Source: Octopus vulgaris
Lineage: Eukaryota
Assembly: GCA_951406725.2 (NCBI GenBank)
Contig: OX597829.1
Location: forward strand, 57,102,001 to 57,166,000
DNA: 64,000 nt
Direction: 5' to 3'
Below are positions 26,956-61,302 of this stretch, in pieces (the stretch's first letter is position 1; each line of letters begins with the position of its first letter). Made by a program: the position numbers and the translations under genes. The notes beneath the pieces were generated by a model. It did no database searches and had not been told where the DNA came from. It was given only the letters and a program-made list of their open reading frames with translations.

Positions 26956-27165
26956 ATGCTTCATTAAAAAACAGCAAAAATATCACAAAAACCGTTACTC
27001 AGAGTTTTACTCTCCCGTTCATCGGACGGGAACGTAAAACTCTGAGTAACGGTTTTTGTGGTATTTTTGCTGCTTTTTAATGAAGCATATTACTCTACCT
27101 CTGGTATTTGAGTACTATTTTTCCCACCTTGTTTCACATTTATGCGTATACCCCGGTGTATACTT
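26956..27165 (+). mobile_element. Penelope-like foldback element with degenerate hammerhead
   Basis: Inverted arms 26956-27018 / 27026-27088 after (TA)n, then a unique tail. Minus strand reads CCGT-CCGATGA-ACGGGAGAGT-AAAA-CTC-T-GAG-TA-ACGG. Confidence 0.65.
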
Positions 27166-27659
27166 ATATACAGAGATATCATAGATACACATACTCATAC
27201 GTACATAACTTGACGTCCACACACCTGATCATCCAACCATCCACAGATAGAAATACACAAACACGCACAAACACACAAACATATGTACATGTTCACACAC
27301 ACACACACACATATACATATGGACCATATACACACACGCCAGTCTATTTTATTACAGTTCTAAGTGCATTTGTCTCTCCATACATTCGTTTCTTTGGTAA
27401 CTGGTGTCGATACAAAAAAGACCATCCTGTTTTATGCGGTGTTGCATATTTATTATAGCCAGCAGCAGCAGCAGCAGAAGAAGCAGCAGCAATCTACAGT
27501 CAACAACTGAACTTCCGTCCTGTGCACGCTTTCCATTTCTGGTGCCATTCATACAACCTCGGTTCCATTTCTTTTAGAAGCAACGGCTGCGACGTGTTGT
27601 CACAAAAAAAAACATGTCGTATAGGGGTGAGATTGCGTGTGTACATGTGTGACAGTGAG

Positions 27660-28030
27660 AGATAGGTAGGTAGATAGATAGATAGATAGACAGACAGATA
27701 GATAGATAGATAGATAGATAGATAGATAGATAGATAGATAGATAGATAGATAAGATAGATAGATAGATAGATAGATAGATAGATAGATAGATAGATAGAT
27801 AGATAGATAGATAGATAGATAGATAGATAGATAGATAGATAGATAGATAGATAGATAGATAGATAGATAGATAGATAGATAGATAGATAGATAATAGATA
27901 GATAGATAGATAGATAGATAGATAGATAGATAGATAGATAGATAGATAGATAGATAGATAGATAGATAGATAGATAGATAGATAGATAGATAGATAGAAA
28001 AATAGGTAGATAGATAGATAGATAGATAGA
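27660..28030. repeat. Long (GATA)n microsatellite
   Basis: Direct inspection. Confidence 0.95.
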
Positions 28031-28204
28031 GCGAGTAGGGGAGAGAAAATTTGAAAGAGAGGAAAAGAAGGATCCAGTACTTTACTGGTAATTCATTTTA
28101 TCCTGTCACCACCACCACCAACTCTACCACCTCCACCACCACGATTGAAGTAAACAAGTTGCCCTCAGCAAGATTTGAACTTAGATTGGAAACGGCTCAA
28201 ACGA

Positions 28205-28420
28205 ACAATTGGTTTCAAATTTTGGTACAAGGCCGGCAATTTCAAGGAAAGAAAGTAAGTTGATTACATCAACCTCCAGTGTTCAACCTTTTTAACCGAC
28301 CCCCTAAAAGGATAAAAGGCAAAGTCGACCTCGGCGGAATTTGAACTCAGAACATAAAGACGGACGAAATGCAACTACGCATTTTGCCCGGTGCGCTAAC
28401 GATTCTGCCAAACTGGCCGC
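28205..28420 (-). mobile_element. Nin-type SINE (CCTTGTACCAAAATTTGAAACC tail)
   Basis: Plus strand AAAGTCGACCTCGGCGGAATTTGAACTCAGAAC...GCTAACGATTCTGCCA. Confidence 0.8.
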
Positions 28421-28989
28421 ATTAAACCAGAAACAAACTGGCAGCCTCACATGCACGCACACACACACATACATACTCATATACATAATGATATAATAAT
28501 AGCGGTGGTGGTGGTGGTGGTGGTGCTGGGTGGTGGTGCTGGTGGTGGTGGTGACGACGTCGTCTTCCGTATTACCTTCGGACGTTTGCGAAGACTCGCA
28601 ATAATTTTATTTCGCTTTCCTTTTATATATATATTTAAGGAAGTTGCTATAGCGTGGCAACCATGCATGAAATGGGTATCCAATGTAATCCGAAGATGTA
28701 ATCCACTGATGATAATCCAATGGCAATTCCAGGTGGCATTCCGATGGTGTAACAATTAGACGTATCAGGGTGGAAAAGGTGGCGGGTGTGAGAAGCGCGT
28801 GATGACATTTCTATTTCAAACTCTCCCAGCAAGGAAAAAAAAATTATGAAATATTTATTGTTGCTCTTGTGTTATTTTCATCACTCTGTCTGTTTGTCTG
28901 TCTGTCTGTCTGTCTGTCTGTCTATCTGTCTGTCTGTCTGTCTGTCTGCTTCTTTATTTACATACGCGCGTGCGCACCCACACCCACTT

Positions 28990-57752: not shown

Positions 57753-58098
57753 TATATATATATATATTGCGTATATATATATTACGTATATATACATACA
57801 TACATACATACATACATACATACATATATATATACGTATATATATATACATACGTACGTACGTACGTACATACATACATACATACATACATACATACATA
57901 CATATACATACATACATACATACATACATACATACATACACATATATATATATATGTGTGTGTGTGTATGTATGTATGTATTATGTATGTATGTATGTAT
58001 GTATGTATGTATGTATGTATGTATGTATGTATGTATGTATGTATGTATATATACGTATATATATATATATATATATATATATATATATATATATATAT

Positions 58099-58266
58099 AA
58101 GGCGCATGGCTCATTGGTTAGAGCGTTGAACTTACGATCGTGAGGCTGTGAGTTCGAATTCTGGACAGGGCTGCGTGTAGTGTTCTTGAGCAAGTCACTT
58201 TATTTCACGTTGCGGCGTCACAGGTGCCAAACTGTATCGGCCTTTGCCTTTCCCTTGGATAACATC
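58099..58266 (+). mobile_element. tRNA-headed CORE-type SINE (family of 1-425)
   Basis: AAGGCGCATGGCTCATTGGTTAGAGCG...GAGTTCGAATTC...CTTGAGCAAGTCACTTTATTTCAC. Confidence 0.85.
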
Positions 58267-59559
58267 TGCACATATGTATATATATTGATGTATATATATA
58301 TATATATATATATATATATATATATATATATATATGCATGTATATATATATGTATGTAATATATATACATACATATGATCGTAAGACACAGACACATTCA
58401 TACCTGTTTCCATAGTGACAAACTAAACATAAAAATAACACTTGTTGACAAATACATTCTGCTGGTCGAGAGATGTGCTAAAAATAACAGCCAAATAGGC
58501 CTTAAATCACGCACCCCACAAAGAAAGATCAGAAATGCAAACAAAAAAATAATAATAATAATAATAATATCTAGTTCAAACGAGAGAGGATCAGGAAAAA
58601 CTGTCTCATGATATGAAATTAAGGAAACTCGACAAAATAAAACTAAAAATCTAAAATATCAACATGAAATATCATCTGTAGCTTCTTCCCGATCTGCTGG
58701 AGTGGTTCTTTTCTTGATAAATTTACTCACCCAGAAGTTAAAGAGAAGAAACTATTAGAACCAGACATTACTCATTTTACCCCGTTTTAGACATCACCAG
58801 ACATTAGTGTGGGGCGGGGTGGGGGTGGAATTGACTTGGAAATCCAACTAAGATTGTTAAACAGCCAAAATTATCCAGATATTCTATTGGCAACCTTAAT
58901 TAGAAACAGGTCAAAGTTGGGGGATAATTTCTTAAAATAAGAGGAATTGCAAACCTGGTTATGTTTCAAACTCTCCCATCTTCAATAACAACAACAACAA
59001 CAATGCTGACCAATTCCTGCTCCTGAATATAATGCAGCAATACAAAATGACGATGCGATGGAATGGTTTCAGACAGGGAGGGAGAAAATAACGAGAAATC
59101 AGAAATTCTGCTCCGGTTACCAATTCTACCCCTCCCATTCCAATGTGTGTGTGTGTATGTGTCTTATAAATTAATACGTTGTGCTTAGTTGAAGATAGTG
59201 GCGAGGATAGGGAGGAGAAAGTGGTGAGGGGGAGAAAATGGAGAGAGAGAGAGAAAGAGAGCGAAAGGTGGTCAGCGGTGGGAACTTAGAGAAAAGAATT
59301 GTGATATTGTATGACGATGAATAGTTGAGAGAAGAAGTAGAGAGAAAGAGAATATTTACCGCAGGAGGGATGTATATTTCAAAGTAAAAAGAGAAAGGAG
59401 AATGAGAGAGAGAGAGAGAATATGCTTACTGAAGGGAACCTGCGAAAAGTGTTATTCTTTTGTTTTTCTTCCTTTTTAAACATTTTTTTTTTATATCTCC
59501 CATCAATTAACGCATGCACTTTAGTAAATTAGCTATCGTCTGCTCAGTCTTGTAAAATA

Positions 59560-60990
59560 CTAGCAGAGATACCCGGCGTTGCCCGTGTCATATGGAATTG
59601 AAGACTTAGACTTTTCTTTTATATTTTCTCTAATGAACTTCAATATCTATGATTCCAATTTCATCAAAATTGCAGATGAAGAATTTTAATGAGAGTTCTT
59701 TCCCAATTTACACACCCACCCACCAAAAATGTGTCGTGATTAGAATTTACACACCCACCAAAAAATTCTAATCACGACACATTTTCCCATACTACTCATC
59801 TTTATGCCAAGATTCCAAAATTCAAATCTTATGGAACCTATTGAAAGGCTTTTCCTCCTGAAAGATGGAGCTCATGGATCTCTAAACTGTGGGAGTTAAG
59901 GCCCCTATTGCGGGCAGGGGGTATCTTAAAGTCAACCAGAGAAGTTGAATTGGAATCTTTTTAACTTGGGTCTTATATCTATTGTTCGAATTTCTTTGAA
60001 ATAGGAAATTTATGTTTACTGGGTTTGTAAAAGAGAGCAAAGCTACAGGAAACCAAAAGACAAATGATCACAATAAGCAGTCAGCTACCTTACCCTAGTT
60101 GTTACCACTCCCAATGTAGGATTCCTCACCATACAGGTGGCGGGCACAACCATAAGATGCATTACGGATCTATAGCAATTGGAAGGGCGTGACCCAACTC
60201 AAATAAACATTAACAACTGTGTGACGTGAGGGCTAAGGAGAAATGAAAGTGTCACCTCTAGAGTTTGCCAATGATCACTATGCTGATAGGTAACTGGACA
60301 GAATAAATTTACAATCTATAAATCTCTTTGAATAACCAGTCACTCATCTGGGAAGGTCTTGATATCATTGTTACCATCTGGGGACTATCTCTGATAATAA
60401 AATGACTCAAAGGCGGTCTGCAACCAAATAACTATACTCAGCACTTTGCAACTGAATCAGTGGAGGCAAAGATACTCCTCCTTTACTTGACAATTTATGC
60501 ACCACATTGCAGAAATCGCAATCTAAGTATGTCTCAAAGCAAAGTCTTACACTGTTGTACCATTGAATTACAAATAACACTCATCTTTTATGCTCGGGTA
60601 ACCATACAGCTTCCAAATGTACAATTATATTCGTCTTGGTCCAGGAAAAATGACTAAATTGTGGGTGGTAAGCCCCTATAAAGGGGTGTTATCAACTTCT
60701 AAGAATTTGAAATTTTAGAAATATTACTTAATTTGTGTTTAATATTTATGGTTAAAATTTCATCAACAGCAAAAATATATAAAGATCCATTCGGTACTTT
60801 TGATCTAGTTTTGGATCATAAAAGATGGCTAAAATTTGGGAGTTAAGGCCCCCATTAGGGGTCTTAGAATCCTCATGAGAACCGAAAACTTTGGGAATAC
60901 TTCGTGTGTCAATTACCTATGGTTGAAATTTCATCAACATCGGAAATTTGTGAATTTTCATTTCCTCCCCCTTTAAGCCACTTAAAATTC
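59560..60990 (-). mobile_element. Helitron-like non-autonomous element with internal subrepeats
   Basis: Minus-strand end CGGGCAACGCCGGG-TATCTCTG-CTAG|T; recurring AATTTCATCAA and GGGAGTTAAGGCCCC blocks (near 59890 and 60840). Confidence 0.5.
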
Positions 60991-61256
60991 AAACTGTATA
61001 TTGAAATGAAATATATTTATTAGGGAAACACCTTTACAGGAACAATCAGAGAACACCTTATAAATCCTTGGCTACCAATCGGTAAAACTTCTATAAGAAA
61101 ATCAAACTGCCCTATTAAGAAAAAGGGACTGCCCCCCGGCTACCAATCAGAGAATCATATGTAAAGAAACGTGGACTGCACCAGGAAAATAAATGCAATA
61201 ATATTAACATCGAAAAATACCTTAGGAATGAGAACCCATGTTCGAAATTTCCTCAA

Positions 61257-61302
61257 GACACCTGATGAAGGCTGGAGGGTATAACAGCCGAAACGTTGTG
61301 TT
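61257..61302 (+). ncRNA. Canonical minimal type I hammerhead
   Basis: GACAC-CTGATGA-A-GGCTG-GAGGGTATAA-CAGCC-GAAA-CG-TT-GTGTT. Confidence 0.8.

Follow-up and report, generated by a model that had tools for sequence, protein, structure and literature searches.

Hammerhead-shaped motifs in an Octopus vulgaris contig as probable end-pieces of many Penelope-like element families, one with a tRNA-derived front

A stretch of 64,000 nucleotides (nt) from Octopus vulgaris (assembly GCA_951406725.2, contig OX597829.1, positions 57,102,001 to 57,166,000; the window) contains a series of short elements with motifs shaped like type I hammerhead ribozymes. These motifs very probably mark pseudo-long terminal repeat (pseudo-LTR) end-pieces of at least eight protein-coding Penelope-like element (PLE) families, each with its own minimal hammerhead, and the end-pieces likely arise when reverse transcription starts internally and runs back only to the start of the RNA, which in one family would lie at a tRNA-derived, predicted polymerase III promoter. 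The direct observations are that the elements have the same termini as coding parents, that their 5' ends cluster, that (TA)n flanks and inverted 5' copies occur, and that a tRNA-like segment lies just behind a stop codon. The system consists for the most part of the remains to be expected from many autonomous PLE families and is not a radiation of retrozymes. Most of what was found is known biology, of which no published description was found for this genome. The ten families are lettered by position in the window (A 26956, B 32084, C 40287, D 41452, E 46770, F 52327, G 44917, H 57091, I 61197, and K 55759; Table 1).

The window was scanned with a relaxed type I descriptor that was composed after the motifs had been seen. 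Six zero-mismatch matches were found. Five of them (cores at 57599+, 45046-, 61262+, 52331+, and 40330-) were already in the list of the first-pass annotation, which had been made from the sequence alone, while the sixth (35110+), unlisted there, lies in a coding remnant resembling a long interspersed element (LINE), has a non-G-C stem II closure, and looks like a chance occurrence. The excess over shuffled sequence that had been predicted was observed: the relaxed class gave 6 matches against a mean of 1.04 (sd 1.07, max 5) in 100 block-wise dinucleotide shuffles, and a tighter class gave 5 against a mean of 0.25 (max 2) in 100 shuffles, a comparison that is somewhat favourable because the descriptor was composed after viewing the motifs. 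Two more listed motifs (56259-56341 and 45070-45121) pass with one mismatch, but the list stood only in part, since four of its members (26992-27029, 32084-32208, 41452-41537, and 46770-46812) fail the descriptor, the last of them without the 5' strand of stem I.

Relatives elsewhere in the genome match with zero mismatches in 24/24 cases for family K, 21/24 for H, 12/19 for C, 8/19 for D, 7/19 for F, 5/24 for A, and 2/14 for E; none of 19 does so for family B, whose stem I of ~2 bp falls short of the required 3 bp and which retains the core, GAAA, palindrome, and UH. Over 489 loci, 309 zero-mismatch matches were obtained. The features found are those of the minimal type I hammerhead (3-8-paired core, GAAA, UH, stems I and II, and palindromic stem III), as had been claimed: among the 14 clusters with at least three matches each, 10 have C-G as their 3-8 pair, 2 have G-C, and 2 have U-A; a perfectly palindromic stem III occurs in 10. 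The hammerhead structure is preserved across unrelated sequences. Folding of the monomers gave z-scores of only -0.4 to -2.6, and no hammerhead family was present among the best 150 of 222 Rfam matches listed for the window. We consider the hammerhead-shaped motifs confirmed as real. Many more hammerhead families were seen as bystanders in the flanks of the loci (e.g., L006, L020, L034, L039, L042, L049, L067, L171, L213, and L284), so the genome has well over ten of them. Another repeated end-piece in the window (52740-53015; matched by L032, L034, L047, L052, and L387) has a core-like heptamer at ~52881 without an intact GAAA half.

Elsewhere in the genome, sequence for reverse transcriptase (RT) and/or a GIY-YIG endonuclease lies upstream of the shared motif in 8/10 families, and we therefore regard most window elements as short copies of autonomous elements. 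The Penelope origin assumed in the first-pass annotation is thus borne out, and the GIY-YIG/RT parents with the same termini for which it advised a search exist; the elements are not parentless. The best-preserved case is family G, in which an intact frame of 1025 amino acids (aa) with a Pfam GIY-YIG match and a cysteine linker was found (L226). At a second locus (L229) G3-C8 hammerheads at 1742 and 6003, 4261 nt apart, flank the frame, an arrangement with the pseudo-LTR on both frame sides (partial tandem) that was found for family G only, and in L228 and L229 the family G tail runs directly into the coding region. In G the coding sequence is intact; in H, K, I, A, B, C, and F what was found is broken or incomplete. 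Copies of H and K extend upstream, across long untranslated stretches, as far as frames for RT and endonuclease; endonuclease remnants of Hydra-like type were found for A, B, and C; and family F has a long CA-rich upstream sequence, with a Neptune-like linker remnant in 1/20 long copies. Judged by motifs as described by Craig et al. (2021; PMC8557442), the parents would be PLEs of Hydra, Neptune/Nematis, and Poseidon types. The parent of family G appears to be of Neptune or Nematis type. Its Nematis option, like the Poseidon look of family I, is partly our assumption.

Four of the window elements (A, G, H, and K) share the layout that had been described for them, namely (TA)n, inverted copy, direct copy, and tail. 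Their inverted arms (26956-27088, 44917-45205, 55759-56410, and 57103-57677) are 86-92% alike and adjoin (TA)n tracts. An optional tail, 30-40 nt long in PLEs, was present in 5/14 scored copies. A (TA)n tract was found at the 3' end in 19/24 copies of A, 17/29 of G, 22/24 of H, 22/24 of K, 14/19 of F, and 17/19 of C, compared with 7-16% in distant flanks. The proposed preference for (TA)n thus holds for six of the seven families tested but not for family I, where 3/48 copies against a background of 11% indicate no preference. First-look searches, in which 40 matches were scored and 15-30 retrieved per search, gave 6167 candidates for F, 4162 for C, 2639 for I, 2611 for A, 1497 for H, 1465 for K, 1381 for G, 718 for B, 608 for E, and 62 for D, which are candidate counts and not copy numbers.

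Table 1. Short elements and hammerhead motifs of the ten families in the window, with the type of parent.
Feature	Position	Strand	Description
Family A	26956..27165	+	Inverted copy 26956-27018, then direct copy and tail, behind (TA)n
Family A hammerhead, degenerate	27029-26992	-	Parent Hydra-like; endonuclease remnant upstream in L471, L466
Family B end-piece (searched stretch)	32060..32330	-	Hydra-like endonuclease remnants in L271, L281
Family B hammerhead-like motif	32208-32084	-	Long stem II region, stem I ~2 bp; U16.1 altered in window copy
Family C 5'-truncated end	40210..40575	-	Zero-mismatch hammerhead 40334-40287, C4 core; parent Hydra-like (endonuclease remnant in L204; L234 match)
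Family D end-piece (searched stretch)	41420..41620	-	Degenerate hammerhead 41537-41452
Family G	44917..45260	+	(TA)n, inverted copy 44917-45056, direct copy 45062-45260 and tail, (TA)n
Family G hammerheads, G3-C8 core	45046; 45076	-; +	No mismatch (45046), one mismatch (45076); parent with intact RT and GIY-YIG frame
Family E end-piece	46700..46812	-	Core at 46810, without 5' stem I strand, GAAA altered
Family F short copy behind (TA)n	52268..52445	+	Zero-mismatch hammerhead 52327-52361; parent likely old Neptune-type (L443)
Family K	55759..56548	+	(TA)n, inverted copy, direct copy and tail, (TA)n; parent Hydra-like (L231)
Family K hammerheads	55907; 56264	-; +	One mismatch each
Family H	57091..57751	+	(TA)n, inverted copy, direct copy and tail, TA-rich flank; parent Hydra-like (L232, L233)
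Family H hammerhead	57593-57652	+	Zero mismatch
Family I 5'-truncated copy	61197..61345	+	Zero-mismatch hammerhead 61257-61302; parent Poseidon-type

In family I, the pseudo-LTR opens with a tRNA-derived segment (the head), which the truncated window copy lacks and most copies of the family have. Upstream of the head, an endonuclease frame without cysteine linker ends at a stop codon whose first base lies 32 nt before it, and the parent frame shares 68% identity with a protein that combines RT and endonuclease. By tblastn, RT or endonuclease sequence directly precedes the head in both the younger variant of the family (L252, L494, L513, L514, L491, L326, and L369) and the older one (L413 and L409); a parentless chimeric short interspersed element (SINE), which had been considered for family I, is overturned by this upstream sequence. 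A tRNA-like segment was present upstream in direct orientation in 16/25 of the top family I matches and in inverted orientation in 10. Exact heads number 1246 and exact hammerheads 1710 (controls 0). Of 30 heads taken in order of position, 24 are directly followed by the hammerhead unit, 27 are linked to it, and 19 have an inversion. End-to-end alignment of the head with ten host tRNAs gave 38-49 identities, the best being 49/73 with tRNA-Arg(TCG) (z 7.2). Copies start within 0-7 nt before the head in 23/30 cases, at 8-48 nt in none, and continue upstream into the parent in 7/30, counts to be read in the light of a pattern that demanded the first base of the head and of a palindrome at its 5' edge that blurs the 6-7 nt class.

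These features suggest that the tRNA-derived segment is likely a built-in polymerase III promoter that would make the copies SINE-like. We tentatively propose, as a possible history, that a PLE captured such a promoter as the front of its pseudo-LTR, so that each end-piece would be a hammerhead-bearing SINE that is transcribed alone and copied by the enzyme of the parent, and the family a Penelope-dependent SINE lineage of thousands of copies. It is possible, if doubtful, that the segment is a passive SINE relic in the pseudo-LTR, with RT stalling at its structure and transcription by polymerase II. Insertion of a SINE into an LTR was proposed as the origin of tRNA-bearing LTR elements (Kojima, 2024; PMC10886601), neither ARAGORN nor Rfam calls the head a tRNA, and the palindrome obscures the exact copy ends. 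This relic would, however, have to account for the A and B box regions being kept in the aligned heads and for the lack of T4 runs in two family I units, compared with 2-5 such runs in six other families. The head also folds weakly (-13.6 kcal/mol), and starts 0-7 nt upstream fit the leader of a polymerase III transcript. Ohshima and Okada reportedly described three octopus tRNA-derived retroposons in 1994, two of them said to derive from tRNA-Arg, and family I may for this reason overlap with one of these.

The hammerhead of family I sits within an open frame of 51 codons starting at ATG, which is likely the start of the frame of the parent; a protein search with it returned two element-derived predictions only. 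A predicted Octopus sinensis isoform starts with ~37 residues encoded by the family I unit, by exonisation or as a prediction artefact. Among 14 scored copies, one 8-nt candidate for a target-site duplication was found. Locus L366, considered as a template jump that would give family I a Neptune partner, was rejected, the copy lying within an older inverted Neptune piece.

For family G, 5' ends were scored by eye in the first 100, in order of position, of 3271 pattern matches (control 1). Sixty-three of the 100 stop within ~6 nt of one site and 37 extend into the parent; at the site, an extra G stands before the first A in 21 and an extra A in 2. A copied cap is expected to leave such an additional G, whose frequency here therefore suggests that the RNA was capped. 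Family F also has a 5' cluster, with 56 of the first 100 of 235 matches stopping within ~5 nt of an initiator-like site (scored by eye), and families A, B, D, and K show looser clusters. In three loci (L016, L171, and L179), the fixed 5' end of the short unit adjoins internal G coding fragments, each time at a different point, which looks as though the enzyme had switched templates once it came to the RNA start. That the fixed 5' end of family G is instead a 3' splice site or a splicing-related stop seems unlikely. The parent does have a branch-point-like motif, a pyrimidine run, and AG just upstream of the site, and PLE introns are kept near the hammerhead (Cervera and de la Pena, 2014; PMC4209133), but the short G copies do not have a common upstream exon, and the extra G is a single base, as a cap predicts. 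No joint at the site was listed in four putative RNA contig sets compared with L229:1346-2700, which speaks neither for nor against a splice site.

The proposed mechanism follows that of the green anole element Poseidon, in which RT starts at two internal sites in the frame start and the enzyme cuts AT-rich DNA, hammerhead cleavage not being needed (Frangieh et al., 2024; PMC11167929). The endonuclease would nick (TA)n or AT-rich DNA, and reverse transcription would begin at one of the two internal sites, which would make the tail optional. Priming in the 3' repeat would give variably truncated long copies, priming near the 5' end of the RNA would give frame-less copies reaching the transcription start, and a second priming would produce the inverted arm. 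The hammerheads may cleave weakly, as dimers or with the help of protein, and would not set the ends of copies. Internal initiation of the anole kind predicts frame-less copies that run from the tail to the RNA 5' end, and the family G sample fits this prediction.

The short elements might alternatively be independent non-autonomous families with masters and internal promoters of their own, mobilised in trans, and we consider this improbable overall. It is most plausible for family I, where the promoter travels with every full short copy, and for family G, and for these two it is possible. Short copies far outnumber coding ones (1381 end-piece candidates in family G vs 39 for a coding fragment); family I has the internal A/B-box-type head without T4 run, the many exact copies, and both older and younger sequence variants; and short non-autonomous Penelope elements were described in butterflies (PMC6685494) and Chlamydomonas (Craig et al., 2021; PMC8557442). 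A substantial share of copies nevertheless extends into the parent (37% in G, 44% in F, and 7/30 heads in I), both family I variants are found behind coding sequence, and use of the RNA in the anole requires coding sequence past the tail, which solo copies lack (Frangieh et al., 2024; PMC11167929). A retrozyme-like cycle, in which hammerhead cleavage frees unit-length RNAs that become circles and then tandem arrays, is very improbable: a preprint derives animal retrozymes from PLE pseudo-LTRs (bioRxiv 10.64898/2026.07.22.740005), and tandem G copies ~260 nt apart with (TA)n spacers, an internal deletion, and one shared 3' flank were seen on contig C31 (L005, L012-L014, L029, and L030), but these arrays look like duplications of one locus because of their (TA)n spacing and single flank, the window has no tandem units, the motifs are of the minimal PLE type, and the copies have their start several tens of nt upstream of the core and their end within the tail. 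Because the unit ends miss the predicted cleavage site, the retrozyme-like character proposed in the first-pass annotation is not supported.

Several points weigh against the reading of the window elements as PLE end-pieces copied back to an RNA start. No coding parent was seen for family D among 20 loci or for family E among 15, those of A, B, C, and F are based on one or two remnants apiece, and no intact family I frame was found. The samples of top matches are biased toward query-like copies, and two duplicate pairs are among the 30 family I heads, a head that the tRNA searches leave uncalled. The start site of family G has the look of a splice acceptor, as described above, and the 5' cluster of family F shows no clear extra G. 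The four RNA contig sets gave no pile-up of starts or ends either, though assembled contigs cannot show RNA starts, ends, or cleavage.

Other repeats lie around these elements. Directly 5' of the (TA)n tract of family G, 44780-44875 resembles an old Neptune-type 3' end (2391 candidates; compared by eye), and the family K element is bracketed by opposite copies of a common 170-nt repeat (55178-55347 and 56639-56808), 89% alike. The stretches 33000-33200 (-) and 35000-35650 (+) look like LINE-type coding remnants, the first of a cysteine-histidine knuckle and the second of a C-terminal part of an RT. A 29-nt tandem repeat occupies 16531-16706 (6 copies, 98% alike). A GIY-YIG-like reading of 61030-61190 was dropped, with no tblastn match to 30 endonuclease proteins and no clear relative among the loci examined. 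The Pfam GIY-YIG search of the genome returned mostly one Neptune family, from which none of the listed elements in the window descends. A Neptune-type family with many near-identical copies (L161-L164 and many other places) has a 781-aa RT and GIY-YIG frame with an overlapping frame upstream and ends in (TA)n; its relatives bear a U3-A8 hammerhead, and none of L161-L164 passes the descriptor.

Published work already reports minimal hammerheads, inverted 5' copies, tails, and insertion into (TA)n as traits of PLEs. The tRNA-derived front of family I, the natural G3-C8 core of family G, and the common 5' end of the short G copies with its frequent extra G were not found in print. Our literature search covered article texts, with supplements, Repbase, and Dfam outside its scope; it returned no description of a tRNA-fronted PLE repeat or of octopus PLE hammerheads, octopus was absent from the hammerhead papers found, and the term G3-C8 occurred in none of the papers listed, while the supplements of PMC4209133 and PMC8557442 may contain variants of interest or families from octopus. 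A tRNA-fronted pseudo-LTR would extend the capture of polymerase III promoters from LTR elements to PLEs, and through it an autonomous element could turn directly into a SINE. The clustered 5' ends with the extra G offer a genomic test of internal initiation, so far seen in vitro for one element only, and the intact family G, which combines a natural G3-C8 hammerhead with an enzyme of its own, would be a usable system for the role of the PLE hammerhead.

Cervera and de la Pena (2014; PMC4209133) reported minimal hammerheads in PLE repeats of many families per genome, with the type I order, an extra base after A9, palindromic stem III, a U3-A8 variant, opposite-strand pairs 100-700 bp apart, and mostly solo motifs ascribed to truncated PLEs. 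The octopus motifs are alike in all these respects and differ in the natural G3-C8 core of family G, which the available text of that paper does not mention. The Hydra clade of Craig et al. (2021; PMC8557442), in which inversions, tails, (TA)n targets, hammerheads, and the non-autonomous Chlamys elements are described, is matched by the CxxC and CxH-type motifs that surround the conserved E and N of the C-terminal endonuclease (A, C, H, and K), the DKT motif (K), and the CxCx5C linker (H); the octopus elements differ by their long low-complexity 3' untranslated regions, and their clade is set by motifs, not by a tree. With anole Poseidon (Frangieh et al., 2024; PMC11167929) they share a tail that corresponds to the frame start (shown for G), AT-rich targets, and the optional tail, and the linker-less parent of family I resembles it as well. 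Differently from the octopus elements, the C3G/G8C change that partly rescues cleavage was engineered there, and no tRNA-derived segment is described in the part of that work cited here. Non-LTR retrozymes (Cervera and de la Pena, 2020; PMC7229834; bioRxiv 10.64898/2026.07.22.740005; see also PMC7761336) are likewise short and frame-less, with a type I hammerhead and a link to PLEs, but they are defined by head-to-tail hammerhead units and circular RNA, a definition that does not fit the octopus elements. Schistosome Sm-alpha (PMC6765202; PMC8490949) has a polymerase III-type promoter followed by a hammerhead, as does family I by prediction; it forms tandem repeats freed by cleavage, and the sections of those papers used here describe no coding parent sharing the repeat, whereas family I is dispersed, shows the tail and inversions of a PLE, and forms part of its parent. 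Helenus, Ajax, and Cassandra (Kojima, 2024; PMC10886601) likewise have, within a terminal repeat, a segment of polymerase III type that derives from tRNA, but they are non-autonomous LTR elements with a primer-binding site and fixed target duplications, while family I is Penelope-like and carries its segment behind coding sequence.

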